Shown here: positions 17,523 to 32,230 of the stretch, in pieces | Numbering within the stretch: position 1 is the stretch's first letter | Layout: each line of letters opens with the position of its first letter | Made by a program: the position numbers and the translations under genes | NCBI GenBank assembly: GCA_048499675.1 | Contig: JASNZL010000009.1 | Location: forward strand, 303-64,302 | DNA from: Candidatus Zambryskiibacteriota bacterium | GTDB lineage: Bacteria; Patescibacteriota; Minisyncoccia; Phycocordibacterales; WO2-35-19 | Direction: 5' to 3' | DNA: 64,000 bases | Notes under the pieces: generated by a model | What the model was told of the DNA's origin: nothing | The model's database searches: none | The model's input: the letters and a program-made list of their open reading frames with translations, nothing else

Positions 17523-18425
17523 ATGATAACAACATACTCACAAAACGAACAGACATGGACTGATATAAGCTCCCCAACAAAGGATGAGCTCGATTCCCTT
17601 ATTATGGCTCAAAATTTGGACCCTTTGATAGCAAAGGACCTAAATACCCCAACACCAAAGCAATACACCAAAAAATTTGATAATTCTGTTTATGTTGTTT
17701 TGCACATACCTTTTTTTAAACATTCAAACAGAGAAAGTCTAGAGCAGGAAATTGATTTCATAATTTCAAAAGATGGTCTTATCACCGCTAGATACGACAG
17801 CATTGATGCACTTCACCACTACTCAAAATATTTGGAGGCAAACGAGACATTTAACAAACCCAGCGATTCTCACATATTTGTGGGGCTAATGAAAGAAGTG
17901 TATAAGTTTTTGTTTGATGAAATAGAATATATGAAAGACTGGACCAAAGAGATAGAAAAAAGAATTTTTCAAGGCAAAGAAAAAGATATGGTTTTTTCTC
18001 TGTCAGAAGCATCAAGAAATATTTTAGTATTTCAAAGAAACATAAAACCTCATGGGGATGTTTTCAAAAAAATGATGGAATTTAGTAAAGATATTATATC
18101 CAAAGATTTTGAAAAGGATATGACTACCCTTATAGAAGAGTGGAATAGACTAATTATTGAAACTCAAAATACCAAAGATATGCTCGACGAACTAAAAGAA
18201 ACAAACAATGCCCTCTTGTCCACCAAACAAAATGAGATAATGAAAATTTTTACAATTCTTGCGTTTGTTACTTTCCCACTATCTCTAATTGCTTCAATTT
18301 TCGGAATGAACACCAATTATATACCTCTAGTTGGACTGCCAAATGACTTTTGGGTAGTTATTGGAATTATGACTATAATGAGTATTGCTATGTTTATCTA
18401 TTTCAAGTATAAAATATGGATATAG
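17523..18425 (+). CDS. corA: CorA-family Mg2+/Co2+ transporter
   Basis: Two C-terminal TM helices with the GMN motif (FGMNTNYIPL). ~300 aa. Confidence 0.7.
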   Translation: MITTYSQNEQTWTDISSPTKDELDSLIMAQNLDPLIAKDLNTPTPKQYTKKFDNSVYVVLHIPFFKHSNRESLEQEIDFIISKDGLITARYDSIDALHHYSKYLEANETFNKPSDSHIFVGLMKEVYKFLFDEIEYMKDWTKEIEKRIFQGKEKDMVFSLSEASRNILVFQRNIKPHGDVFKKMMEFSKDIISKDFEKDMTTLIEEWNRLIIETQNTKDMLDELKETNNALLSTKQNEIMKIFTILAFVTFPLSLIASIFGMNTNYIPLVGLPNDFWVVIGIMTIMSIAMFIYFKYKIWI

Positions 18426-18532
18426 GAGAGTTAAAAGTTAAAAGTTTTAAAGTTCATCAAGTAAAAAAGAATTTGATATTGTTTAATTTTCACTTTTTAA
18501 CTTGCGCTTTTATAACTTTATAAACTAAGCTT

Positions 18533-19918
18533 ATGCAAATAAAACTATACAACACCCTAACCAACAAGAAAGAAGAGTTTGAGCCTTTAGATAATAAGGA
18601 GGTCAAAATGTACAACTGTGGACCTACAATGTATGGCAGACAACATATAGGCAATCTTTCTATGTTTGTGTTTACTGACATATTAAGAAAAACTCTAGAA
18701 TATGGTGGTTATAAAGTAAGGCAAGTAATAAACATTACAGACTTTGGTCACCTCTCAGGCGATAATCAAGGTGATGCTGATCACGGAGAAGATCGGATGA
18801 CTATGGGACTCAAAAGAGAAAAGATGGCACTTACAGTACCCAACATGAGAGTCCTTGCTGAGAAATATGCAAAGACTTTTTTTGAGGAAATCAAATTACT
18901 AAGCATTGACTCAAAAAAAATTACTTTTCCTTTTGCATCGGACTATGTCAAAGACCAGATAAAAATGATTGAAAAATTACTCGAAAAAGGTTTTGCTTAT
19001 GAAGGTAAAAACGGTGTATATTTTGACACATCAAAATACCAAAATTACGGCAAATTAGGCAAAATAAACATAAAGGGTTTGAAAGAGGGCGTGAGGGTAA
19101 GTAAAAGCGAAAAGAGAAATCCTACTGATTTTATTTTATGGAAAGGAGATAAAAGTCTGGGTTGGGAGTCACCTTGGGGTTTTGGTTTCCCCGGATGGCA
19201 CATAGAGTGTTCCGCAATGATTATAAAAATTCTAGGTGATCAAATTGATATACACACAGGAGGTATAGAACACATTGGGGTGCACCACAACAACGAAATT
19301 GCTCAGTCAGAATGCGCGACGGGCAAATCCCCTTTTGCAAAATATTGGCTTCATAGAGCACATATAAAAATAGACGATAAGAAAATATCCAAATCAGAAG
19401 GAAATACGCTCTTTTTAGAAGATTTTAAAAAACATTTTATTCACCCAATTTCTTTTAGATTTTGGCTTCTCTACTCTCATTATCGCAAACCATCCAACTT
19501 TACTTGGCAAAGTGTTTCGGGTGCTCAAAATACCTTAGAGAAGATTATATATTCATATAATGATTTCCCCACAAAAGACGAAACCGATAACGGAGTATTA
19601 AAAAATTTTGAAGATGCCATTTCTGATGATTTAAATACCCCTATCGCAATCTCCATACTTCAGGAAGCCAAATCAAAAAATGTAATAGAAAAGATGGATA
19701 AAATTTTTGGTTTAGGAATCAAAGATTTATCAAAACAAATACATAGTGATTTTCCGGAAGATATTTCTGATATGAAATCAGAAAGAGACTTGGCAAGAGA
19801 GAAAAAAGACTGGCAAAAAAGTGATGAATTAAGGAAAGAAATAGAAAAAGCTGGATTTGTTTTGGAAGATAGAGAAAAAAAGACAATTCTTAGAAAAACT
19901 CTTTCTTCGCTTGTTTAG
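18533..19918 (+). CDS. cysS: cysteine--tRNA ligase
   Basis: [16 protein letters not shown] (HIGH region). KISKSEGN (KMSKS). Zn-binding residues for a class I aaRS. Confidence 0.9.
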
Positions 19919-20134
19919 CTAATAAATACAACATAGTCACCTCTTTCTTTGTTGTGCGGGTAGGGGTAATCGAACCTTCAACTTTTTGTTCGTCGTCACT
20001 CACAAAAGTTTAGGCACCAACTCGCCTGTTTTTGTTGGTACAAAAACATGGCTCCGTTGGTTTCGATCACCCCGCAAAGCAGAGCAGTCTGCTTTGCTCT
20101 ACCACGCACAACATAGTCACTTCGTTCCTTGATG

Positions 20135-20205
20135 TGCGGGTAGGGGTAATCGAAACCCCGTCTCAACCTTGGGAAGGTCGCATTCTACCACTAAACTATA
20201 CCCGC
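20135..20205 (-). tRNA. tRNA-Gly (anticodon CCC), no encoded CCA
   Basis: Hand-folded cloverleaf. Acceptor stem GCGGGTA/TACCCGC. Anticodon stem CGACC/GGTTG with loop TTCCCAA. T-arm GGGGT-TTCGATT-ACCCC. Discriminator A. Confidence 0.7.
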
Positions 20206-20472
20206 ATTGTTTTTTAAATATTTTTGAATTCTTTTCTTTACATAACCTCTACCAAAACCTGTTTTTAGTTGAAGTTCTCTTTTCCTGGAATCTGTCTTAT
20301 CTAGGCATGCCTCATAGTAAACCAGTGTAATTTTATCAAACTTTTTTGTTGTTTGAACTTCCCCTAGTTTATGCTCTCTTAATCTATTAGGTAAATCACT
20401 TGTTGAGCCGATATAAAAATTGCTTTCTTTTGTTCTCAAATTTTTACAATGTAGTACGTAAGTATAAAACAT
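20194..20472 (-). CDS. small GIY-YIG (URI-domain, YhbQ/COG2827-like) nuclease. The probable start is MFYTYV, and the 3' end overlaps the first ~12 nt of tRNA-Gly.
   Basis: FYTYVLHCKN...FYIGSTSDLPNRLREH is a GIY-YIG motif. ~92 aa. The stop TAG lies inside the tRNA D-arm. Confidence 0.6.
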
Positions 20473-20618
20473 ATTATTTCTTGCCCGCCAAAAGGTTTGC
20501 AAAACCATTTTGGCGGGTCCGCCACAATGTCCGCTTTGCGGACTTTGGGCGGAGGAAGGTCGCATTCTACCACTAAACTATACCCGCAATATTATATTTT
20601 ATATAATAAAAACCTTTA

Positions 20619-21833
20619 TTATTCCATATCCAAATAAGAATTTATGTAATGTATCGCAATACCTCCATAATTCCTATTCTTCGCAAACTCTGCTTCTATT
20701 TTTTCTATCTCTGTGTACAAATGACTTCTGCTCTTGCTATGAAAAGTTATATAAGGCGGTGGAAAGTCCCCCGTCTCTTGAGCAATGATTAATTTTGTAT
20801 TTTTTGCCTTCCTCTTGAAAGTCTTCATCTCATTTTTTGAGACTTCAATTGAACCATCTTCCCCATCTGCAAAATTCCTATAGGACATCACAATTACAGA
20901 ATTACCTTTTCTCTCATCTAGAATATTTATCAAATGAGGGATTACGTATTCGGACAAACCATTATAATAAAATTTTTCAGTCACCTCATCTTTTTTATCA
21001 TAAAAATCTGGAATAACTACCGAAAATCTAATATCTGTATCCTTAAAAAAGTTTTCTGTTTTGTGTATTAATTCCGTAAAATTACGGAGCACATCCGATT
21101 GTTCTGTTTGAAATCTTTCCAAAAGGTAAGGTTCTACATCATACTGAAAACCTCTAAACTTATAACTACTTTCTTCATTAAAATCTTTAACAAAATTCAC
21201 AACCGCATAAGGTTTATACAAATTCCCCTCCTCTGCCCAATTTTTCCATCCCGCAAGGGCATCTACCTCTATATCATTTTCATTAGCAATTTTTATAAAA
21301 TTCTCTATTTTATTTTTAAAATCTAGTTCTCTATTTATTTTGGTCTGAGATTCTTCCATAACAAATATATCCAAATAAGAATCAATTGAGAGGTATATCG
21401 TATTTATTCCCTTTTCTTTTGCACCTAATACAATTTCTGAAACATAATCATTCGTAAGATACATAGTTGGGGTCCAGAGCCAACTGCCTTTTTCTTTTGG
21501 TTCTAAATCGGAATTTTTTATCAAACTCAAAAGGTAGTCAAATATCGTGATATTTTTTATTGAATGAAAAACCGAGGCCACTTGATAAGCAAAAGGGTTT
21601 ATATCTTTTTGTTCTAATTCCTCAAAAGCTAAATGACTGTATTCTTGATTTGTTTCAGTAATGCTCAAACTTCTTGTTTGTTCCCTATTTAATGACAAAC
21701 TCAAATCAATATTGTTTTTGTGTGGTACCGACTCTATACCATTAACAACACTAAACACAAACAAAAAAATCAAAAATACAACTGGCACAAAGACAAGGTG
21801 CTTGGTATTTAATTTTTTGGTTTTCTTTCGCAT
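20619..21833 (-). CDS. secreted hypothetical protein, possibly TIM-barrel glycoside-hydrolase-like
   Basis: Signal/TM N-terminus. 404 aa. Weak resemblance to GH-like families (GINTIYLSID, GGIAIHY). Confidence 0.3.
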   Translation of the reverse strand: MRKKTKKLNTKHLVFVPVVFLIFLFVFSVVNGIESVPHKNNIDLSLSLNREQTRSLSITETNQEYSHLAFEELEQKDINPFAYQVASVFHSIKNITIFDYLLSLIKNSDLEPKEKGSWLWTPTMYLTNDYVSEIVLGAKEKGINTIYLSIDSYLDIFVMEESQTKINRELDFKNKIENFIKIANENDIEVDALAGWKNWAEEGNLYKPYAVVNFVKDFNEESSYKFRGFQYDVEPYLLERFQTEQSDVLRNFTELIHKTENFFKDTDIRFSVVIPDFYDKKDEVTEKFYYNGLSEYVIPHLINILDERKGNSVIVMSYRNFADGEDGSIEVSKNEMKTFKRKAKNTKLIIAQETGDFPPPYITFHSKSRSHLYTEIEKIEAEFAKNRNYGGIAIHYINSYLDME

Positions 21834-22460: not shown

Positions 22461-22988
22461 TCATCTTTCAAATGAACCTGTTACCCACGCAAATTCATTT
22501 TGCCAATTTCTAGAAGGGCAACTCCACCCGGGACTTGTAGGCCACGTCCCACTTTTTGACTCCATCCGACCTATTCCCAATACATAAAAAGCACCTTTTG
22601 AAGAGTCACACCCCGCAGTCCCCGCTCCATATTTATAGTAGTAATAAGCACCACTTGTACACCCCGTAACACTTGCTGGGTCACCAGGTGTATCTATAAA
22701 CCCTTGAGTCTTAAGTGGTTGTATAAAAGTATCAGTAGAAGCGCTCCCATTAAAACCTATATCCCAACCACTGCAATCATTGTCTGTATTGTTTGGATAA
22801 GTATTGTTGTTTGCATAATAATAAAGTTCTAGAGCATTTCTTATCTGTCTAACATCAGAAAGTCTTTTTGTATCTCTTGCTTTCGCTCTTGAGTTATTAA
22901 TCGCTACCAAAACAATGGAAGAAAGCACACCGATTATAGCTATAACCACTAGAAGCTCAATTAAAGTAAATCCTTTTGAATTTTTCAT
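22461..22988 (-). CDS. type IV pilin / pseudopilin-like protein, paralog of 15220..15768
   Basis: KGFTLIELLVVIAIIGVLSSIV prepilin N-terminus. Confidence 0.7.
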   Translation of the reverse strand: MKNSKGFTLIELLVVIAIIGVLSSIVLVAINNSRAKARDTKRLSDVRQIRNALELYYYANNNTYPNNTDNDCSGWDIGFNGSASTDTFIQPLKTQGFIDTPGDPASVTGCTSGAYYYYKYGAGTAGCDSSKGAFYVLGIGRMESKSGTWPTSPGWSCPSRNWQNEFAWVTGSFER

Positions 22989-23040: not shown

Positions 23041-23455
23041 CAATAAATTTTGTCGTATTAGTTTTATTGGTTGTATTAGTTTTATTGGTCGTATTAGTTT
23101 TATTGATCGTATTAGTCCTATTGGTCGCATCCTTCTTATCCTTCTTATCCGTCCCTAGTCCCATTCGTCCAATTTTCCCTCCCCGCCCCATTCGACCTAT
23201 TCGTCCTATCTGTCTTAATTGGTCCTATCAGTCCCGTCTCCTCTTTTCTCCACTTTTTTCTTTCCTTTTTCGATTCGTCCTATCTGTCCTATTCGTCCTA
23301 TCTGTCTTATTGGTCCTATTTTCCTCCCCACCCCATTCGTCCTATCTGTCCAATTTTCCCTCCCCGCCCCATTCGACCTATTCGACCTATTCGTCCTATC
23401 TGTCTTATTAGTCCTATTTACTTTTTAAAAACCTGCTCCACCCATTACTTCGTAT
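23041..23455. repeat. degenerate 9-bp tandem repeat array 1 (YNGTCCTAT on the + strand). It begins with 4x an 18-bp unit (cgtattagttttattggt) and contains conserved internal blocks.
   Basis: Directly visible periodicity. Fills the whole intergenic gap upstream of lepA. Confidence 0.8.
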
Positions 23456-23490
23456 CCAATTTTTATGCTATATTAGCTCTAAACTCCATT

Positions 23491-25332
23491 ATGAAAAATA
23501 TCAGAAACTTTTCAATTATTGCCCACATAGACCATGGTAAGAGCACCTTGGCTGATAGAATGTTAGAAATTACAGGCACAATAGAAAAACGTAAAATGCA
23601 CGACCAAGTGCTAGACTCTATGGATTTGGAAAGAGAACGTGGTATCACCATAAAAATGCAACCTGTCCGAATGATTTACAAACCCCAAACCCAAGTTTCA
23701 GAAATTTTAAATTTTGACTTTTACATTTTAAACTTAATAGATACCCCTGGCCACATCGACTTCTCTTACGAAGTTTCAAGGGCCCTAAAAGCCGTTGAAG
23801 GTTCTATCCTTCTTGTTGACGCAACTCAAGGTGTCCAAGCCCAAACTCTCACCACACTTAATATGGCTCGGGAAGCAGGCCTCGTCATTATCCCCGTCCT
23901 TACAAAAATAGACTCCCCTCTTGCCAGAGTAGAAGAAGTCAAAGAAGAAGTTGTAAAACTTTTATCATGCGATAAAGAAGATATTCTTTTGGTATCGGGC
24001 AAAACCGGCGAAGGTGTAAAAGATTTACTCCACGAAATTGTTGAAAAAATTCCACCACCAAACAAAGAAGAAAGTTTGGAAAACAAAGAAAGTGATTTTA
24101 GCTCCTTGGTTTTTGATTTTCAATATTCTACTCATAGAGGTGTAATTGTTTTTGTTCGAGTAATGGAAGGTAAGATTAGCAAAAACTCACCACTCATTTT
24201 TAAAGTTGCCAACGAAAAATTCAACGCTATTGAAGTTGGAATATTTGCACCCGACGAAAAACCTGTAGAAAGTTTGAGTGCTGGTGAAATCGGCTACATC
24301 GTAACCGGCATAAAAGAACCGGGTATTGCATCAGTTGGAGATACTGTCAGCCACTTAAATAATACAAAAGGTCCTTTAGCTGGATATTTTTCTCCCAAAC
24401 CAGTCGTCTGGGCATCAATTTATCCAGAAAGCCAAGACGACTTCGTACCCCTCAAACAAGCGCTCGGCAAACTTAAACTTTCTGATTCTTCATATACCTA
24501 CGAAGAAGAATCTTCAGGTGCTTTGGGGCGTGGTTTTAGATGTGGTTTCTTGGGAATGCTCCACCTAGAAATTATTACCGAGAGACTCAGACGAGAATTC
24601 GATTTAGAGCTTGTAGTCACAATGCCTACAATCACATACGAAGTCACTTACAAAAATCCAAATGGTTCAAAAGGAGAAGGTAAAAAAGAAATAATTTATT
24701 CTCCCGCAAACTTTCCTGACGATGGAATAGTTGAGTGTGTTTTTGAGCCATGGGTTTCTGTTTTCATTATTACCCCCATTACTTATGTCGGTTCTCTTAT
24801 GCAACTTCTCTATGAACACGAAGCGATACTAATTGATACAACAAACTTTGGTGATGACAAATCTGAGTTAAAAATAGAAATGCCTCTCCGTGAACTAATG
24901 CGAAACTTTTTTGACAAACTAAAAAGTTTGACTTCCGGATACGCCTCTATTTCTTACGAAATACAAGGTATGCGCGAGGCAAACGTAACAAGGCTTGATA
25001 TTTTGGTTGCAGACGAAGTCCTACCTGCTTTCTCAAGAGTTGTATCAAAAAGAATAGTAGCTGAGGAAGCCGAAAATGCTGTAGAAAAACTTGCAGAGAT
25101 AATACCTAGACAAATGTTTGCAATGAAAATACAAGGCAAAGCACTTGGTAGAATTATTTCTTCAAAAGCTATTAGCGCATTTAGAAAAGATGTCACCCAA
25201 CATATGTATGGGGGCGACATTACCAGAAAAATGAAGCTTAGAGAAAAACAAAAGAAAGGCAAGAAAAAAATGCAGGCCCGAGGAAAAGTTAATATTCCTC
25301 ACGAAGTATTCCTAAAGATGATGAAAAACTAA
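23491..25332 (+). CDS. lepA: elongation factor 4 (LepA)
   Basis: NIRNFSIIAHIDHGKSTLADR G-domain. LepA-specific C-terminal domain. Confidence 0.9.
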   Translation: MKNIRNFSIIAHIDHGKSTLADRMLEITGTIEKRKMHDQVLDSMDLERERGITIKMQPVRMIYKPQTQVSEILNFDFYILNLIDTPGHIDFSYEVSRALKAVEGSILLVDATQGVQAQTLTTLNMAREAGLVIIPVLTKIDSPLARVEEVKEEVVKLLSCDKEDILLVSGKTGEGVKDLLHEIVEKIPPPNKEESLENKESDFSSLVFDFQYSTHRGVIVFVRVMEGKISKNSPLIFKVANEKFNAIEVGIFAPDEKPVESLSAGEIGYIVTGIKEPGIASVGDTVSHLNNTKGPLAGYFSPKPVVWASIYPESQDDFVPLKQALGKLKLSDSSYTYEEESSGALGRGFRCGFLGMLHLEIITERLRREFDLELVVTMPTITYEVTYKNPNGSKGEGKKEIIYSPANFPDDGIVECVFEPWVSVFIITPITYVGSLMQLLYEHEAILIDTTNFGDDKSELKIEMPLRELMRNFFDKLKSLTSGYASISYEIQGMREANVTRLDILVADEVLPAFSRVVSKRIVAEEAENAVEKLAEIIPRQMFAMKIQGKALGRIISSKAISAFRKDVTQHMYGGDITRKMKLREKQKKGKKKMQARGKVNIPHEVFLKMMKN

Positions 25333-25334
25333 AA

Positions 25335-25690
25335 CTTTTCTATCTATCCTACTTCTTCTGTCTCATCCCCCTTTTCTTAATTCGTCGCATCCATCTTATT
25401 TTCCTTCCCCTTCCGTCAAATTCGACTTATCCGTCCTATTTGTCCCATTAGCCCTATGCGTCCAATTCTTTTTTTATTCGTCCCATTAGTCCCATCCGTC
25501 CTATTTGTCCTATTAGTCCTATTTCCCTCCCCGCCCTATCAGTCCTATTCGACTTATCCGTCCGATTCCCTCTCTCTTTTTCTTTCCTTTTTCGATTCGT
25601 CCCATCCGTCCCCTATCCGTCCCACTAGTCTTATTAGTCCTATTCGACTTATTTGTCCTATTTCCCCACCATCTCCCTGCTCTCCAAAAT
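25335..25690. repeat. 9-bp tandem repeat array 2 (same family and orientation)
   Basis: ccgtcctat/tagtcctat units plus conserved blocks tatttccctccccgccc and ctctctttttctttcctttttcgattcgtcc. Confidence 0.8.
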
Positions 25691-27292
25691 TTTAAAAACA
25701 AAAGCGGTCGCTAAAATCCCTATCGTTCCAGCAATAAACCCGTGTCCCAATACACCCCAAAAAGTCTCAAGTGTAAAATAGTCAGAAAATACCAAAAGAC
25801 CCAAATAAACTCCAACCCCACAACCCAAAGCTCCAACCAAACTTTCAACAATAGTTCGCCTTATAGAAATCCAAATATCAAATACTAGTTCTCTACCAAG
25901 ACCAAAGAAAAGCAAAAGGGCGCTAAAAATACTCCCCAAAGAAAAAGCAAAAGGCAAAGATAGAATTTTTAAAGACAAATCAGGCACTTTTAAAATATCA
26001 GCAACTAAAGCAAAAAAGACTCTAAAATCCTCAAAATATTTATAAAACAAAACTGCAAACAAAACCGATACTACACCACCTAAAATGTTTCCGTAAAATG
26101 GCCATTTAGTTCTGCCAAGTGCATAGTGCGAACGAGACAAAAACAAAACTATACTTTGAAAAACGATTGAAAGAGCAAAAATAGCAAGCGACGCAGAGAC
26201 AAGCCTAGTAGAAAGCCAATCAAAAGACCCAGAACCCAAAACAACTCTGGTAATGTGAGCTCGCAAAAGTATTATAAAAACTGTAAAAGGGAGGGACCAA
26301 AAAATGATTTGCCTTAATCCGTGAGAAATCTTTTCTATTACACCAACCATATCTTTTTTTGCATAAGATAGTGCAAGAGCCGGAAAAGCCGCCAAAGAAA
26401 AACTAACACCAATAAGAGAAATTGGAGCCGATTGCAAATTCCAAGACAGATTAAATATCGCAATAGAACCAGTTTCCATTCTAGAAGCAAGAACAGCAAA
26501 GAAAAAACCAACAAAACTTGTAATAGAAAGGGCAAGTGTTCGTGGAACCGACAATTTTCCTACTTCTAACACATCTTCCCATTTAATTCTTTTAATAAAT
26601 CTCGGCCTGAGTTTTGACCGCATTACAAAAATTGCCTGAAGCAAGAGATGCATAAAAGCTCCGAGTATCACTCCAAAAACCGCTGAGGAAATACCTATTT
26701 TTTCGCTCAAAGCAAAAATTCCAATGATAATACCAAGGTTATAAAGTATCGGACTTATTGAATACAAAATAAATCTTTTTTCATACTGGACTATACTGCC
26801 AAAAAAATTAGAAAAACCTAAAAGAAGCGGCGATAAAAGTAAAACTCTTGATAAGAGAATTATTTCATTAATCGTATTTAGAGAAAGGGTAGAATAAAAA
26901 AAGTTAACTATAATCGGCATCAAAAAATATGCGAGTCCACAAAACAAAACAATAAGAACCGAAAAGATACTAAACACCGAATCGGTTGCATCCTTCAAAT
27001 GTTTTTCACCTTCCGTTTCTTTTTTTGCAAACAAGGGCACCAAGGCAGAGATAGAAACCAAAGAAGCAACAGTCACAAAAATCAAATCCGGTACTTTAAA
27101 AGAGGCATAATATATATCAAGCTCAAGTCCTGCACCAAAATTATGAGCGAGCATCCTATCGCGAAGGAGTGCCAAAATAAGTGAAAAGAAAGAAAAAAGA
27201 GCTAGCCAAAATGCCGCCTCTCCTACTCCGTTAATTTTTAGCGCTATAGAGTTTACTATCCTCTTTACCATTATTAATAAAAAATAGCACAA
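25658..27292 (-). CDS. murJ: lipid II flippase MurJ (MviN). The true start is possibly the internal MVKRIV.
   Basis: About 14 TM helices. N-terminal motif RDRMLAHNFGAGLELDIYYASFKVPDLIF matches the MurJ family. Confidence 0.65.
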   Translation of the reverse strand: MCYFLLIMVKRIVNSIALKINGVGEAAFWLALFSFFSLILALLRDRMLAHNFGAGLELDIYYASFKVPDLIFVTVASLVSISALVPLFAKKETEGEKHLKDATDSVFSIFSVLIVLFCGLAYFLMPIIVNFFYSTLSLNTINEIILLSRVLLLSPLLLGFSNFFGSIVQYEKRFILYSISPILYNLGIIIGIFALSEKIGISSAVFGVILGAFMHLLLQAIFVMRSKLRPRFIKRIKWEDVLEVGKLSVPRTLALSITSFVGFFFAVLASRMETGSIAIFNLSWNLQSAPISLIGVSFSLAAFPALALSYAKKDMVGVIEKISHGLRQIIFWSLPFTVFIILLRAHITRVVLGSGSFDWLSTRLVSASLAIFALSIVFQSIVLFLSRSHYALGRTKWPFYGNILGGVVSVLFAVLFYKYFEDFRVFFALVADILKVPDLSLKILSLPFAFSLGSIFSALLLFFGLGRELVFDIWISIRRTIVESLVGALGCGVGVYLGLLVFSDYFTLETFWGVLGHGFIAGTIGILATAFVFKILESREMVGK

Positions 27293-27299
27293 AAAACCT

Positions 27300-27850
27300 T
27301 TTTTTAAAACGCAAAACTCACTTCCCTAGTTCCATTATCCAATCTTCCTTCTACTTTTTTCTTCTTTTTTCCCTATCCAACTTATTTTCCTTCCCCTTCC
27401 GTCAAATTCGACCTGTCTTATTTCCCTCCTCCGCCTTATTCGTCCTATTAGTCCTATCCGTCCTATTAGTCCCATCCGTCCGATTCCCTCTCTCTTTTTC
27501 TTTCCTTTTTCGATTCGTCCCATCCGTCCCATCCGTCCTATCTGTCTTATTTCCCTCCTCTGCCTTATTTGTCCTATCCGTCCTATTCGACCTATAAGTC
27601 CTATTTGTCCTATTAGTCCTATTTCCCTCCCCGCCCTATCAGTCCTATTCGACTTATCCGTCCGATTCCCTCTCTCTTTTTCTTTCCCTTTTTAATTTGT
27701 CCCACCGTCCTATTAGTCCTATCCGTCCTATCCGTCCTATCTGTCTTTTTTGTCCTATTTCCCTCCTCTGCCTTATTTGTCCTATCCGTCCTATTCGTCC
27801 TATCCGTCCTATCCGACCTATTGGTCCTATTTCCCTCCGCTTTCTTCGTC
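27300..27850. repeat. 9-bp tandem repeat array 3
   Basis: Longest array. Several copies of the conserved blocks. Its 3' part overlaps the acidic C-terminus of the 27827..28489 gene. Confidence 0.8.
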
Positions 27851-28489
27851 CCCTTTTCCTTCTTCGTCATCTTCAATTGGAACCACCCTACCGTCTATCA
27901 ACCTCTTACGACCGTTCTCTTTTAAAATCCTAGCGTACACCTCATCATCATTCCCAAAAATCTGCTCCTTTTTCACCTCCCTCTTCCTATCATTAAAATC
28001 CCCATTCACCTTAAACTCTTCCTCCAAAACTTTTATCTGATTATCAAGCAAATAATTGGTTTGATTAATAAGACAAAGCAAACAATTCCCAGCAATTTCT
28101 GGATGCTTCATATAAGCCGAGTATGTTTTACTCGTCTTTTCGGGCAATCTCGCAATCTCCCTAATCTCAATCGTTCGAGGATCGTCCTTCTTCCAAATTG
28201 AGAGGTTGTTTACTCTCAAATAATCCAAAATGTCGTTTTTTAATTCCTCCTGACTACCTCTGGCAACATTCAAAAGCCTAATCTCGGTTTGTTTTGAGGT
28301 AGCCGAATTTAAACTACCTTCGCTTATGTTTTGTTTGCCCGCTCTCGCCGCCCCCTCCATCTGTTCTTTCATTTTAAACGATTTGACGTAAAGTTTGCAA
28401 AATTCAAAAGTTAAATCAAAAACTATTTCGGCGCTCTGAAAAGATTTGAGTTTGTTGTAGCCACCATGTTTTGCAATTAAATCAGTCAT
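27827..28489 (-). CDS. four-helix-bundle protein (23S rRNA IVS protein / Avd-like family) with ~90-aa acidic C-terminal extension
   Basis: KSFQSAEIVFDLTFEFCKLYV...NISEGSLNSATSKQTEIRLLNVARGSQEELKNDI matches the TIGR02436/PF05635 pattern. Confidence 0.5.
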   Translation of the reverse strand: MTDLIAKHGGYNKLKSFQSAEIVFDLTFEFCKLYVKSFKMKEQMEGAARAGKQNISEGSLNSATSKQTEIRLLNVARGSQEELKNDILDYLRVNNLSIWKKDDPRTIEIREIARLPEKTSKTYSAYMKHPEIAGNCLLCLINQTNYLLDNQIKVLEEEFKVNGDFNDRKREVKKEQIFGNDDEVYARILKENGRKRLIDGRVVPIEDDEEGKGDEESGGK

Positions 28490-28539
28490 TTTTTTAATTT
28501 AATTTTTAATTTTAATTCTAATTTTATTCTAATTCAAAT

Positions 28540-28960
28540 TGTAATTCTAATTTTATTTTTAATTCGTCCCATCCGTCCTATCCGTCCTATTCATTTTTTA
28601 TTTGCCCTATCCGACCTATAAGTCCTATTTCCCTCCTCTGCCTTATTTGTCCTATCCGTCCTATTCGACTTATCCGTCCTATCAGTCCTATTCGACTTAT
28701 CCGTCCGATTCCCTCTCTCTTTTTCTTTCCTTTTTCGATTCGTCCTATCCGTCCTATTAGTCCTATCCGTCCTATTTCCCTCCTCTGCCTTATTTGCCCT
28801 ATCCGTCCTATTCGACTTATCCGTCCAATTCTCTCTCTTTTTCTTTCCCTTTTTAATTTGTCCTATCTGTCCAATTTTTTTATTTACCCTATCCAACCTA
28901 TAAGTCCTATCTGTCTTATTTGCTCCATCCGACTTATTGGTCCTATCAGTCCTATTTCCC
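28540..28960. repeat. 9-bp tandem repeat array 4
   Basis: Same units and blocks. Preceded by an AATTCTAATTTT AT-rich repeat at 28495-28560. Confidence 0.8.
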
Positions 28961-30991
28961 AATTAGATACAACTGCTTCACCTCCTCCGCCGACAACGCT
29001 CGATTATAAATCCGCACGTCGTCAATCGAGCCGTTAAAAAATCTATTTAACCCATTCCATTCAGAACCAATAGCTAAATTATTTGCATTAACTGTAATAT
29101 TACCAGTTGCAGAAATAAATTTATCTAACTGTCCATCAATATATATACTGAAACCTGTTTGGTCTATCGTGCACAAAATATGATACCACCTGTTAGTTTC
29201 AAGAGTGGCACCAGAACTATGATATCCTGCTGGACTTTTACCATATGCAAAAACTTCAATTTTCCCTGTTGGTACAATTGTTAAATAATATGTACCTTTA
29301 ATTATTACTCCCCTTCTATCCGCACCAGCCCAGGAATTTCCCTTTACCCAAGCGGACATAGTAATTTTTGTAACATCCAAATTGTCGCTATCATTTATTA
29401 TTACGTATTGATTTGTTCCATCAAACTCCAACGCCTGACCTATCTTACCAATAGTTGGTTTTGCACCAGTGATCGTTCCATTGTTCCCCTGCCCGCTCCT
29501 ATCATAAGCAGTCGTGCCCGAAATATCCTTACCATCAAAACTCCACAACCCAACCAAACCATCAGTCATTTTATTATTTTGGGAAGAGTTTATGGTCGCA
29601 CTACTCTGTTCATAAAGTTTTTGTATTTCTCCGGCTGATAAAGCTCGGTTGTAGATACGAACATCGTCTATTAGTCCGTTATAAGAGTAATCGCTATTAT
29701 GATAGTCTCTGCCAATTTTACCAAAAGTGGATATATTAACAGTTATCTGACCAGAATTTATAGGGCTATAAGCAACACCGTCAATGAATATTGTTACTGT
29801 CCCAGCATTGTAATCATACACGCCGGATACAAAATGCCATTTCCCGTCATTTACGTTCGCATTAACAAAAGCTTCATAAGCTGATGAGCCGTTACCAACC
29901 CATAAACCCACACGGTTAATATTTTTATATGTCATCAATTTTACTCCGTATAGATAGGTATTGTCTGTTGCCAAAACCGTTTGATGAGGTTTCCCAGTCG
30001 GTGGCCCGTTAGATTTCATCCATGCCGAAATAGTTTGAGAGCCTGTCAGTCCTGAATTTATTAAATTCACATCAACATAACTATTAATTCCATCAAAACT
30101 TAAAGCCTTCCCTCTCTTTCCATCCGTCCAAGTGGCGCCAATGATGGTCCCATTATTCCCATTCCCACTACTGTCTCCCGCAACTGTTCCAGCTCCTTCA
30201 TCAAACGACCAATACCCAACAAGTCCTTGATTAGAAACTGTTTTCCTTGTCGCTTGCCCGCTTGAATAAAGCCTTGCAATCTCTCCAGATGACAGCGCTC
30301 GATTATAAATCCGCACGTCGTCCAAAAATCCATCCAGTCTAAACGAATGAGTACCGAAAGTTAAATTTGCATTATTCGAAATAGATCCACTTCGACTTGA
30401 TATATTCACCGTATGCTTTAGAGTTCCATTTATGTAAAACTCCGCATCAGAACTCCTTCTATAATTCACCGTAACAAAATTCCACTCATTGTTCCCAACA
30501 TAAGTATTACCTGATGTGGTATTACAAGCAACATTACTAGAGACATCTTGGAAATGAGTACAAACTTCACCATTAAACATTCTGACAACAAAACCAGTGG
30601 TTACTGACCCATTACTACCATATTTATTAATTATACCAACATTACTTCTTGAATCATTTGTTTTGATCCAAAACGAAACTGAAAAATCTTGCGTCCCAAA
30701 GTTAAAAGAGTCTTTATTCCCAGCATTTACATACCCACTACTTCCATCAAGTTTTAATGCCTTCCCCCTTTTTCCATCTGTCCATTCTACACCTCCAACG
30801 AGTGTGCCATTATTCCCATTCCCGCTACTATCCCCCGCAACTGTTCCAACCCCTTCGTCAAAATTCCAATACCCTACCAAACCAAGGTTTGATGGGGGGC
30901 GCGCCAAAACCGCAGCAGTCGCTGTACGCGGAGTTGGTAAAGCTATAAACAGCAAACTAAATATGATTATTTTGATGAGAGCTTGTTGCAT
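28952..30991 (-). CDS. secreted protein with four LamG / concanavalin-A-like lectin domains (Laminin_G_3 type)
   Basis: Signal peptide. Fourfold repeat of the diagnostic motif (L/I)DDVRIYNRALS..EI..LY. Confidence 0.65.
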   Translation of the reverse strand: MQQALIKIIIFSLLFIALPTPRTATAAVLARPPSNLGLVGYWNFDEGVGTVAGDSSGNGNNGTLVGGVEWTDGKRGKALKLDGSSGYVNAGNKDSFNFGTQDFSVSFWIKTNDSRSNVGIINKYGSNGSVTTGFVVRMFNGEVCTHFQDVSSNVACNTTSGNTYVGNNEWNFVTVNYRRSSDAEFYINGTLKHTVNISSRSGSISNNANLTFGTHSFRLDGFLDDVRIYNRALSSGEIARLYSSGQATRKTVSNQGLVGYWSFDEGAGTVAGDSSGNGNNGTIIGATWTDGKRGKALSFDGINSYVDVNLINSGLTGSQTISAWMKSNGPPTGKPHQTVLATDNTYLYGVKLMTYKNINRVGLWVGNGSSAYEAFVNANVNDGKWHFVSGVYDYNAGTVTIFIDGVAYSPINSGQITVNISTFGKIGRDYHNSDYSYNGLIDDVRIYNRALSAGEIQKLYEQSSATINSSQNNKMTDGLVGLWSFDGKDISGTTAYDRSGQGNNGTITGAKPTIGKIGQALEFDGTNQYVIINDSDNLDVTKITMSAWVKGNSWAGADRRGVIIKGTYYLTIVPTGKIEVFAYGKSPAGYHSSGATLETNRWYHILCTIDQTGFSIYIDGQLDKFISATGNITVNANNLAIGSEWNGLNRFFNGSIDDVRIYNRALSAEEVKQLYLIGK

Positions 30992-31171
30992 CGTAATTAA
31001 CCTAATTATACTAATTAACCTAAATAAATCCTAAACCCTAATTAGAAATTAAAAATTCAGTAAAAATTTTTCCCTATACTTCTGCATAAGTTCAGAAACA
31101 TATGAGACTCTGATTTTTGATTTTATATGTCTTTTTATCTTAAATCTTAAATCTAATTTATTAACACACTC

Positions 31172-31702
31172 CTAAAACGAAAAACTCTCCACAAACATCT
31201 TAAGCAACTCCTCTTCTCCTTCCTCGCAAGTTACTTGATACAAAACTCCTTCCTGAATAAACCAAACATCCCAAACTCTTCCCATTGTCTCGTGTTCTGA
31301 AGCAAAACTCACAGCAGAAATTTTTGCCTTTGGTAATTCTATATCCAAAAGTGATTCTATTTTTTCACCCGCCAAATCTCTCCTTACAGTATTTGAATCA
31401 ACTTTTACACTAGTATCAACTTCCGAAATATAGACTTGCATTCCCTTTCCTTCCCTCAAAACCAAAATACCCTCACCAAATCCATCTTCTACAATAGATA
31501 GGGTGTGAGAACTTGGATAATCAAAACTAAAACCAAGTGTTGAATGGACAAATACCAACATCTCGGTTTTGCCATAAACCCCTTTTGTATCTATATCCAA
31601 AATATCACCAAGACTTCTAGGACCTTTTTCACCACCACTAAAGTAAATTATTATTAGAATAACAATCACCACAAACAGTCCTGTGTAAATCACCTTTTTC
31701 AT
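31172..31702 (-). CDS. membrane-anchored/lipoprotein-like small protein, unknown function
   Basis: N-terminal TM/signal segment. 176 aa. Confidence 0.35.
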   Translation of the reverse strand: MKKVIYTGLFVVIVILIIIYFSGGEKGPRSLGDILDIDTKGVYGKTEMLVFVHSTLGFSFDYPSSHTLSIVEDGFGEGILVLREGKGMQVYISEVDTSVKVDSNTVRRDLAGEKIESLLDIELPKAKISAVSFASEHETMGRVWDVWFIQEGVLYQVTCEEGEEELLKMFVESFSF

Positions 31703-31744
31703 ACTTTTGTTAATTTCTTTTTTATCTCTTTAACTTTACCGTTT

Positions 31745-32230
31745 CAACTCTCCCCTTTTATTTTATCTTGCCCCAATTCGTCCTATTTGTTTATCCACCC
31801 CATCTTCCTTTTTCCTTATCTGTCCTATTTGTCCTATGAGCCCCATCCGTCCTATTTCCCCTCTCTTTCCTCATCGGTCTTATACGTCCTATTTCCCTTC
31901 TCTGCCTTATTCGTCCTATTAGTCTTATTGGTACTATTTCCCTCCCCGCCCGCCATTCGTCCTATAAGTCCTATTTCCTCTCTCTTTTTCTTTCCCTTTT
32001 TAATTTGTCCTATCCGTCCGATTAGTCTTATTAGTCCTATTCGTCCTATTCGACCTATCGGTCCTATTTCCCTTTTATACGTCCTATTTGTCCTATCCGT
32101 CCGATTAGTCTTATTAGTCCTATTCGTCCTATTCGACCTATCGGTCCCATTTCCCTTTTATACGTCCTATTTGTCCTATCCGTCCAATAAGTCCTATTTC
32201 CCGCCCCCCTTCCTTCCTCTTACAACAAAC
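31745..32230. repeat. 9-bp tandem repeat array 5
   Basis: Contains an internal ~90-bp duplication (32030-32110 and 32111-32190). Confidence 0.8.

Follow-up and report, generated by a model that had tools for sequence, protein, structure and literature searches.

We analysed the tRNA-Gly(CCC) locus in a 64,000-nucleotide stretch of DNA from Candidatus Zambryskiibacteriota bacterium (contig JASNZL010000009.1, positions 303 to 64,302), the whole of which is called the window below. On the minus strand, an exact copy of the 5' part of the tRNA (copy A), a GC-rich double hairpin and a small GIY-YIG nuclease gene precede the intact tRNA (copy B), and the nuclease gene ends inside that tRNA. The double hairpin and the gene, together with the tRNA nucleotides that accompany them, are referred to as the cassette. 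In the direction of reading, the features are as follows.

20603..20632, minus strand: promoter-like hexamers TGGATA-18-TATTAT (consensus scan), in the AT-rich spacer directly upstream of copy A
20554..20587, minus strand: first part of copy A, a duplicate of tRNA-Gly(CCC) nt 1-34 (34/34 identity to 20205..20172)
20484..20553, no strand assigned: double-hairpin element (DHE), 70 nt (fold z-scores, covariation, covariance model)
20473..20483, minus strand: CAAG (tRNA nt 35-38 by count, canonical 36-39) and the spacer AAATAAT, followed by the ATG (direct reading)
20191..20472, minus strand: GIY-YIG nuclease open reading frame (ORF), 93 codons and a TAG stop (Pfam PF01541, E = 1.4e-12)
20135..20205, minus strand: copy B, the intact tRNA-Gly(CCC) (ARAGORN; Rfam RF00005, 65.4 bits, full length)

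The 34 nt of copy A correspond to canonical tRNA positions 1-35 (position 17 is absent) and end after the second anticodon base; the probability that a match of this length occurs by chance within 64 kb is negligible. The DHE lies exactly between canonical positions 35 and 36, and behind it copy A resumes as CAAG. The same 'CAAG(G)' continuation stands behind the hairpin in about 20 relatives. At its other end the ORF overlaps copy B by 15 nt: the terminal codons GCG GGT ATA GTT TAG are tRNA nt 1-15, and the stop codon (20193..20191) is made of nt 13-15, which belong to the D-arm. A first-pass annotation, made from the letters of this DNA, had already noted the exact 34-nt copy of the tRNA 5' half (20587..20554, ending inside the anticodon) and the intact tRNA-Gly(CCC) at 20205..20135. 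The former stands at 34/34 identity, and the latter was recovered by both ARAGORN and the Rfam scan. Between them it had placed a structured 45-nt segment, which is indeed structured but is part of a longer, discrete unit, the 70-nt double hairpin at 20553..20484 between positions 35 and 36. Its ORF of ~92 residues (20472..20194) with a stop in the tRNA was also right in outline; the true count is 93 codons and the end is at 20191, since 20194 omitted the stop codon. Searches of the 64-kb window found no second tRNA, GIY-YIG gene or DHE copy beyond the one of each described here.

To place this arrangement, relatives were found by searching with the neighbouring cysteinyl-tRNA synthetase (CysRS), and their contigs were then compared with the window. 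In one of them, L089, CysRS is 81% identical to that of the window and the gene order is the same. The spacer ending 'aaatataatatt' is common to both, and in L089 it leads without interruption into the one intact tRNA-Gly(CCC); hairpin, ORF and second 5' half are absent. By blastn, L089 is colinear with window positions 17887-20206 and then 20554-21498, and nt 1-35 of its tRNA align to both copy A and copy B. Relative to this empty allele, the window thus has 382 bp of cleanly inserted DNA, of which 34-35 nt duplicate the 5' part of the tRNA. The inserted DNA consists, in order, of the 70-nt double hairpin, CAAG plus 7 nt, the GIY-YIG ORF without a stop of its own, and tRNA nt 1-34. Copy A stands where the tRNA 5' end stands in L089, and the 3' half of copy B is identical to the L089 tRNA. 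Because the two 5' copies are identical, a 5' half brought in by the element and a resident one that was duplicated would look the same. The first-pass annotation had proposed a GIY-YIG element of ~380 bp inserted in the tRNA at the anticodon, with the tRNA restored through a second 5' half, and had pointed to an empty site in related genomes as the check; the 382-bp insertion agrees with this, as does L089, where the same flanking genes and spacer lead into one intact tRNA.

Five further relatives (L088, L090, L217, L218 and L219) also have a tRNA-Gly(CCC) adjoining CysRS and no nuclease gene there. The site is thus occupied in three genomes (window, L001 and L003) and empty in six (L088, L089, L090, L217, L218 and L219). 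The strand of the tRNA relative to CysRS is opposite in two groups of genomes, and each group has both occupied and empty members. The hexamers at 20603..20632 presumably represent, on weak evidence, the promoter of the resident tRNA; transcription from it would now pass through copy A, hairpin and ORF and into the tRNA. A second candidate promoter inside the hairpin (TTGCAA-18-AATAAT) was not relied on, as its -10 box abuts the ATG.

Comparison of the occupied sites indicates that the nuclease ORF is under purifying selection and that the cassette spreads horizontally. The ratio of nonsynonymous to synonymous divergence (dN/dS) of the ORF is 0.09-0.11 when the window is compared with L001 and L003. 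Measured from the window, the synonymous divergence (dS) of the ORF is 0.16 for L001 and 0.58 for L003, while for the adjacent CysRS the same pairs give 1.28 and 3.1, the latter being saturated. Synonymous divergence in the ORF is therefore 5-8 times below that of its neighbour, from which it follows that the cassette moves between lineages. Consistent with this, the cassettes of the window and L003 share 87.5% nucleotide identity whereas the flanking genes share 64-69%, and the L003 cassette, although oriented oppositely to the window's relative to CysRS, exceeds the flanks by far in similarity. The two tRNA 5' copies of L003 are identical to each other and differ from those of the window at two positions. 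Viruses did not emerge as carriers: the IMG/VR viral contigs contained no relatives of the nuclease, and none of three viral matches to the hairpin pattern was upheld by the covariance model. A defence-system or phage protein was likewise considered and set aside, PADLOC giving only marginal matches, PHROGs none and IMG/VR no relatives.

The arrangement recurs across a large family. A scan of contigs from one genome per species yielded at least 587 relatives of the nuclease, mostly in Patescibacteria, and counts of locus layout were taken from the best 80. A tRNA on the same strand lies immediately downstream of the ORF in 64 of the 80 loci. It is tRNA-Gly, mostly CCC, in 41 of these 64, and elsewhere a tRNA for Val, Ile, Ala, Asp, Glu, Lys, Thr, Arg, Asn, His, Leu or Phe. 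The stop codon of the ORF falls inside the tRNA in 48 of the 64 loci, and in 32 of those 48 it is the TAG of the near-universal U8-A9-G10. These tRNA-borne stops therefore account for the odd C-termini seen in the protein alignment (AGIV, MRV, xRD, AGVVQW). About 50 of the 80 loci have, in front of the ORF, a duplicate of the opening 20-45 nt of a same-type tRNA. This duplicate ends 0-20 nt before the start codon and is interrupted by a hairpin element. In the protein tree the tRNA-Gly clade stands apart from a Val/Ile/Asp/Ala/Glu/Asn clade, and clades track the type of tRNA. As a separate observation, the stop of CysRS in L003 is the TAG that nt 8-10 form in the partial tRNA copy upstream (L003:3982-3996), so that a host gene also borrows a tRNA-derived stop.

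The family also displays stages of decay. Among 22 Gly loci, copy A is the same as the functional tRNA in 10 and has diverged to 55-94% identity in the others; in L020, L021 and L045, copy B is 97-100% identical between genomes and copy A only 62-88%. Since it diverges while the functional tRNAs stay constant, copy A is a decaying by-product, with the DHE and the ORF as the parts that are conserved. A role for copy A as a conserved functional RNA or guide was ruled out, as it decays faster than the tRNA. Forms without the ORF (A-hairpin-B) exist as well, and L162 retains the last 12 codons of the ORF alone. In several loci the tRNA is followed by a 3' tRNA fragment that contains a DHE, again at the same position (35/36 in L009, L012, L013 and L037; 21/22 in L040 and L051), and in L068 a full-length pseudo-tRNA with a DHE at 21/22 lies beside the intact tRNA. 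These fragments and the L068 pseudo-tRNA look like hairpin-only conversions of spare tRNA copies.

Distant relatives of the nuclease, mostly from outside Patescibacteria (L054, L071, L075, L076, L078, L082 and L085), lie away from tRNAs. They have in common a motif CCCCGTTAGA(G/T) about 10-30 nt upstream of the ORF start (~2501), at the 3' end of the upstream gene, and L065 and L087 have the variant CCCTGTTAAATAGC in the same place. The motif suggests that this distant clade may have a different conserved insertion target.

We next consider the hairpin itself. The DHE is built of two adjacent GC-rich imperfect palindromes, (Y)CCGCC-nAAAG-stem-CATTnn-GGCGG(R) and YCCGCC-AAAA-stem-TTTT-GGCGGG. 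The window copy gives fold z-scores of -8.3 as DNA and -4.7 as RNA with flanks. In an alignment of 37 copies, 92% of the cells are paired and 16 of 24 pairs have changes on both sides; none of 500 shuffles was as good, and in slid-register controls pairing fell to 34-52%. The covariance model scores 68 bits at the window site and 60 bits on the opposite strand, and G-U pairs are nearly absent from the covarying pairs (11 of 886 cells). The near-absence of G-U pairs and the near-equal scores on the two strands fit a palindrome acting at the level of DNA better than a dedicated RNA. In relatives the DHE interrupts copy A at positions 12-14, 17, 20-22 or 35/36, sometimes in two copies, and the tRNA resumes behind it; a zero-extension gapped aligner over-split some hairpins, and these positions were taken from clean cases and covariance-model coordinates.

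The DHE is also found away from the nuclease. A pattern search of metagenomes, blind to the nuclease, yielded 52 loci that were each upheld by the covariance model. A GIY-YIG gene lies within 150 nt in 18 of the 52, or about a third; ~9 are tRNA fragments or pseudo-tRNAs without an ORF, including A-hairpin-B forms; and roughly 20 lie inside open reading frames, with lengths that are mostly multiples of three. The idea that the hairpin is exclusive to the nuclease locus thus holds within the window and is false in general. Such strong enrichment beside one small gene argues for a functional partnership between the two. By its properties (a short palindrome, in multiple copies across genomes, at non-coding and in-frame coding sites, with no ORF of its own) the DHE resembles palindromic miniature inverted-repeat transposable elements (MITEs) and Rickettsia palindromic elements (RPEs).

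Six of the host proteins were upheld by Pfam: NusA (in its tail), FtsZ (linker), ribosomal protein L23 (N-terminus), a YchF-like GTPase, AlaRS and RF1. In-frame sites include L163:720-776, L131:10830-10886, L110:952-1014, L120:309-374, L168:3854-3910 and L126:1782-1841, with further ones in L137, L141, L161, L149, L112 and L142. Depending on orientation, the DHE encodes the peptide PAKSxGHLGGPAxISPKASLGG or NPPKAxxFRRARxxAKLxAG. The tRNA fragments also contain at least two more families of GC-rich hairpins. One is a single long hairpin, CCCGCCYGCAACGC...GCGATGCGGGCGGG, found beside distant nuclease clades (L019:2369-2405, L061, L067, L070, L074 and L079); the other is a 29-nt hairpin, CCCGCC-ACAACTTCGCAGATGT-GGCGGG, sometimes nested in a DHE (L010:2438-2466, L012:2685-2712, L051:2403-2435 and L162).

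The nuclease is small. Its match to PF01541 (48 bits against a cut-off of 22.6) covers residues 1-75, and Y5, Y20, R30, H34, E54 and E66 are invariant in 33 homologues; by analogy, these residues would have the catalytic roles that the superfamily assigns to the Tyr of the GIY motif and that of the YIG motif, to Arg and His, and to the Glu that binds metal. The AlphaFold model (predicted local distance difference test score, pLDDT, 87) has a beta-beta-alpha-beta-alpha core, and all 93 residues fall within the catalytic fold. No auxiliary DNA-binding domain was found, the protein matching the GIY-YIG catalytic domain alone, and no NCBIfam model covers it (TIGR01453, 'group I intron endonuclease', reaches 16 bits against a cut-off of 56). 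Foldseek ranked 7wme (HIGLE), 1zg2, 7cq2, 7cq3 and 4xlg (Slx1) ahead of UvrC (1yd6), while the sequence profile searched against the PDB gave E-values of 3.6e-4 for 1zg2, 0.015 for 1ywl, 0.71 for Slx1 and 0.82 for I-TevI. An invariant Asn after E66 is lacking among the 33 homologues. With scores as weak as these, assignment of the protein to the Slx1-like/UPF0213 (YhbQ) lineage is probable but not firm. The Slx1-like proteins of prokaryotes consist of a minimal domain that stands alone and lacks the C-terminal Asn, and the family is mainly vertically inherited with a presumed function in repair, selfish GIY-YIG enzymes coming from the UvrC+ lineage (PMC1564403).

The first-pass annotation had invoked a homing endonuclease, and here the protein departs from it, being no typical member of that class but a bare 93-residue catalytic domain of Slx1/UPF0213 type. 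I-TevI/Seg-type enzymes combine a catalytic domain, a linker and a C-terminal DNA-binding domain in 200-plus residues, an architecture that it does not have. At the same time, the gene is present or absent at one conserved site (three occupied, six empty) and spreads horizontally, as judged from dS. The protein thus fails the architectural definition of a GIY-YIG homing endonuclease, and the gene shows homing-like population behaviour. Some annotations extend the ORF to 124 codons (20565..20191). We rejected this version, in which the extension is the GC-rich hairpin read through; in relatives such as L012 it contains in-frame stops. Public entries P0002, P0004, P0019, P0035, P0087 and others give the nuclease 118-134 residues, with the start called inside the partial tRNA copy. 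Overlong entries of this kind are an annotation artefact typical of these loci, produced by read-through of the hairpin.

Altogether, we think it probable that a small selfish cassette has settled in the chromosomal tRNA-Gly(CCC) of Patescibacteria (the candidate phyla radiation, CPR), that it recombines on tRNA arms, and that a hairpin-recognising nuclease promotes its spread. The cassette sits after anticodon-loop position 35, so that the resident 5' half is stranded upstream as copy A and copy B is rebuilt downstream. Entry would be by recombination in which tRNA sequence supplies the homology, copy A forming the left arm and the 3' half of the tRNA the right arm, either during double-strand-break repair (homing) or by recombination of incoming DNA. 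Such arms would let the cassette enter any genome with a similar tRNA, whatever the flanking genes. The tRNA promoter would read through copy A, hairpin, ORF and tRNA, and translation would end at a UAG made of tRNA nucleotides; cleavage by RNase P at the tRNA 5' end would then remove the stop from the mRNA and result in a low level of nuclease. Because the nuclease is Slx1-like and lacks a DNA-binding domain, it may recognise DNA structure rather than sequence, and the double hairpin is its likely cis-acting substrate, for example as an extruded hairpin or a looped-out heteroduplex. Cleavage of the hairpin would promote gene conversion that spreads hairpin-only or hairpin-plus-ORF copies. Once the cassette is fixed, copy A decays, the ORF can disappear, and recombination of copy A with copy B can return the site to its empty state.

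Several points weigh against this scheme. The nuclease activity and its target are predicted from sequence, and the promoter and the co-transcript from consensus matches. We know of no characterised homing endonuclease that is a 93-residue domain without a DNA-binding module. Copy B is an intact tRNA body, so a nuclease that cuts the empty tRNA at 35/36 should also cut the host tRNA, which argues against simple recognition of the tRNA body. The position of the DHE in copy A varies within a single protein clade (12-14, 17, 20-22 and 35/36), and most DHE copies in the metagenome sample do not adjoin a nuclease gene; the DHE may be an independently mobile passenger rather than the recognition site of the nuclease. 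Finally, L089 could owe its empty allele to a later, precise loss of the cassette and need not show the ancestral state.

A bolder version of the same scheme, which we put forward tentatively, is that the 93-residue protein is the dedicated, structure-recognising mobilisation enzyme of a phylum-wide double-hairpin family, of which the hairpin-only copies are non-autonomous derivatives. The nuclease gene and hairpin together would be the autonomous unit, parked at tRNA genes and rendered harmless there by duplication of a tRNA half. Hairpin-only copies would insert precisely, without target-site duplication, both in tRNA genes and in frame in essential protein genes. If true, this would amount to hairpin-guided homing on the repair-type branch of GIY-YIG enzymes, unlike known homing endonucleases, transposases and RNA-guided systems.

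Other explanations accept the cassette and differ on what moves it, or dispute its mobility. The same cassette might be passively mobile, through RecA recombination after DNA uptake or Campbell-type integration of a circle, with the nuclease as a hitch-hiking repair, defence or hairpin-processing enzyme. A single crossover within nt 1-35 with a circle of tRNA 1-35, hairpin, 36-39 and ORF would yield exactly the structure observed, and Saccharibacteria are naturally competent (PMC10187176). The absence of any DNA-binding domain from the nuclease speaks for passive mobility, as does the intact copy B, which would be a self-target of a tRNA-specific endonuclease. We nevertheless consider it rather unlikely: a dedicated mechanism is implied by recurrence at many tRNAs, always with the same ORF-tRNA junction and the same hairpin partner; arms of 13-35 nt offer RecA little homology for efficient recombination; and the strong purifying selection acting on a gene confined to such sites accords with the gene promoting its own spread. 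Still less can be said for the view that the nuclease gene is an ordinary host gene, passed on vertically and sharing a transcript with tRNA-Gly (a tRNA- or repair-related enzyme, for instance), and that the tRNA fragment is left from an old local duplication. It would agree with the wide occurrence of the nuclease in Patescibacteria, nearly always beside tRNA-Gly(CCC), with dN/dS of ~0.1 and with the lack of relatives in viral contigs. The empty sites in close relatives, the flank comparison and dS 5-8 times below the neighbouring gene largely refute it and leave it very improbable. The L003 cassette, opposite in orientation to CysRS yet far closer than the flanks, does not fit a resident gene, nor do the degenerate and ORF-less versions and the recurrence of the same architecture at more than ten other tRNA species.

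The tRNA-derived sequence that flanks a conserved structured element on both sides, next to a nuclease without its own DNA-binding domain, also brings to mind an RNA-guided system in which a transcript of copy A and the double hairpin serves as guide or scaffold and directs the nuclease to tRNA genes. To this we give only a very slight chance, since copy A decays freely relative to the tRNA (identity is down to 55-90% in 12 of 22 loci) and the hairpin, which occurs in both orientations and in frame in protein genes and almost lacks G-U pairs, behaves as DNA; no RNA binding is known for the GIY-YIG fold class of this protein. A group I intron, or its remnant, with a homing endonuclease gene in the anticodon loop has even less in its favour, and it or any other known RNA can be ruled out for practical purposes. 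The insertion point 35/36 is the same as that of the Patescibacteria tRNA introns (PMC13011429), and GIY-YIG genes are common passengers of group I introns. Against this, an Rfam scan at E <= 10 over 19000-21500 returned the tRNA alone, the insert ends with a repeat of the 5' exon so that the U/G splice-site rule cannot be satisfied, an intact uninterrupted tRNA is present, and the hairpin element is also found in protein genes.

The selfish cassette that we favour has partial parallels in several known systems. Paquin et al. reportedly described, in 1994, a mobile mitochondrial endonuclease ORF inserted in Allomyces atp6 together with a replacement for the displaced gene segment, and are said to have reported double-hairpin elements of Allomyces mitochondrial DNA in 2000. 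In layout, such fungal and algal mitochondrial ORFs resemble the cassette in that a duplicated segment of the host gene is joined to a nuclease ORF, so that the gene stays functional while the displaced original piece is left as a decaying pseudo-copy, and in that the mobile ORFs have GC-rich double hairpins associated with them in otherwise AT-rich DNA. They differ in that a protein gene is the target and its 3' part is duplicated, whereas the cassette has a tRNA target, duplicates the 5' part and lies in a bacterial chromosome, with an ORF that borrows its stop from the tRNA. The RPEs, reportedly described by Ogata et al. in 2000, are by description like the DHE: short palindromes found in RNA-gene contexts and, as in-frame multiples of three, in essential genes. 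They have no known dedicated enzyme gene, whereas about a third of the sampled DHE copies lie immediately upstream of one nuclease gene. Integrase-mediated islands and prophages in tRNA genes, reportedly described by Williams in 2002, are similar in inserting at the anticodon loop or T-loop, regenerating an intact tRNA and marking their other end with a partial copy. The cassette differs in having no integrase, in its size of 0.35 kb, in duplicating the 5' and not the 3' portion, and in a junction that lies inside coding sequence; with the GIY-YIG gene as the sole ORF between the flanking genes and the 5' portion as bounding repeat, it does not qualify as an integrase-type tRNA island.

Nearer to the nuclease itself, SegB of phage T4 (PMC2330249) is a GIY-YIG gene that lies among tRNA genes, is preferentially co-inherited with the adjacent tRNA region and is present or absent between relatives. 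SegB-type proteins exceed 200 residues, have a C-terminal DNA-binding region and belong to the I-TevI/UvrC lineage, in contrast to the 93-residue cassette protein of Slx1/UPF0213 type. They are phage genes that neither split nor duplicate a tRNA, while the cassette is chromosomal in Patescibacteria and comes with a hairpin element. The UPF0213/YhbQ proteins (1zg2, 1ywl; PMC1564403) provide the best sequence-profile and fold matches and share the minimal GIY-YIG domain of ~90-100 residues with no auxiliary domain and no invariant C-terminal Asn. The similarity is remote (profile E = 3.6e-4), and the cassette protein differs in behaving as a mobile element on the Slx1-like side of the superfamily. 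In the same phylum, GIY-YIG ORFs occur in CPR rRNA genes, within insertions that belong to neither the group I nor the group II introns (PMC11270868), and position 35/36 of Patescibacteria tRNA genes is a site of group I introns (PMC13011429). Both concern structural-RNA targets, the former having GIY-YIG ORFs in common with the cassette and the latter the insertion point; they differ in that no duplication of a tRNA half, hairpin element or ORF ending inside a tRNA is described in them. We found no published description of the tRNA cassette or of the hairpin family in the literature searched, which did not cover subscription journals.

The cassette may thus be regarded as a variant of homing-type selfish nuclease genes, with a credible chance that the partnership of nuclease and hairpin is something more distinct. 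It would mean that a selfish element other than an intron is able to settle in a structural-RNA gene that is essential and single-copy, by duplicating the half that it displaces, while borrowing the tRNA promoter and, from the near-universal U8-A9-G10, a stop codon. Two tRNA halves serving as universal homology arms would explain spread across a very diverse phylum. The cassette would also place a mobile lifestyle on the Slx1/UPF0213 branch, for which no bacterial function is known and which was previously regarded as non-selfish, and would link a nuclease to palindromic repeats inside essential genes of the genome-reduced Patescibacteria, which bears on how such repeats, Rickettsia-type elements among them, move. 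On the practical side, these loci matter for tRNA and gene annotation in CPR genomes, where they give rise to N-terminally extended ORF calls and pseudo-tRNAs, and they may offer a compact structure-specific nuclease.

Downstream of copy B, and outside the cassette, lie two further features.

19978..20134, minus strand: conserved non-coding stretch, 157 nt (97% identity to L089)
19928..19974, minus strand: partial duplicate, of older date, of the tRNA 3' end (T-loop to nt 71) with ~25 nt of 3' flank (47-nt direct repeat)

Positions 19928-19974 repeat 20108-20154 over 47 nt at 91% identity (20 nt of it exact) and a spacing of 180 nt. The stretch between contains a perfect 24-nt hairpin (20074-20097), a second, AT-rich perfect hairpin (20027-20048) and, on the plus strand, an inverted T-arm-like fragment (20059-20073) and an acceptor-like fragment. 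The first-pass annotation had seen both the ~47-bp duplicate, which it placed at 19930-19977, and the strong hairpin, which it put at 20079-20104; both exist, with the coordinates corrected here, but the duplicate is not part of the element as had been supposed. L089, although its site is empty, has the 3' duplicate and the 24-nt hairpin as well (89-97% identity), and L001 has the duplicate. They are therefore older than the cassette and unrelated to it, and L089 rules out the 3' duplicate as its right end.

Positions 19978-20134 are 97% identical to L089, as against 71-76% for the flanking genes (see also L089:2050-2258 and L001:4340-4548), and may be a structured RNA or recently exchanged DNA. 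RNAalifold closes this stretch with the 3' tRNA fragment into one structure; it did so from three sequences with one compensatory pair, which is too few, and we did not adopt the structure. No Rfam match was found for the stretch. The 3' duplicate most plausibly marks earlier events at this end of the tRNA; with somewhat less than an even chance, it is the scar of an integrase-type integration, excision or inversion that had nothing to do with the nuclease cassette. Its presence at the empty site would fit such a scar, as would the opposite orientation of the tRNA in sister genomes, the inverted T-arm/acceptor fragment between the 3' copies, and L090, in which this tRNA holds another island, flanked by a repeat of 16 nt from the tRNA 3' end. 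On the other side, no integrase gene lies nearby, and the high identity of the 157 nt between the 3' copies relative to the flanks suggests function or recent exchange, not a decaying scar. The L090 island (L090:4981-5426) is an insertion of ~430 bp at the same tRNA-Gly(CCC), with a 98-codon ORF without a Pfam match and the 16-nt direct repeat CCCCCCACCCGCACCA. It is a classical att-type duplication, and shows that tRNA-Gly(CCC) is a general integration hot spot.

Two observations concern other genes. In L001 (1-1899), LepA has 765 residues and carries a PD-(D/E)XK domain (PDDEXK_3) inserted inside its GTPase domain, while LepA of the window (~23490-24926) is without these ~450 extra nucleotides; this is a further case, within one lineage, of a nuclease-type insertion that is polymorphic in a housekeeping gene. 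Finally, window positions 22461-22988 hold a type IV pilin-like gene with the N-terminal motif FTLIELLVV, and many dispersed matches to the pilin gene of L088 extend over ~9 kb (~23190-32200), a pattern which suggests that this region may be a large array of pilin paralogues.

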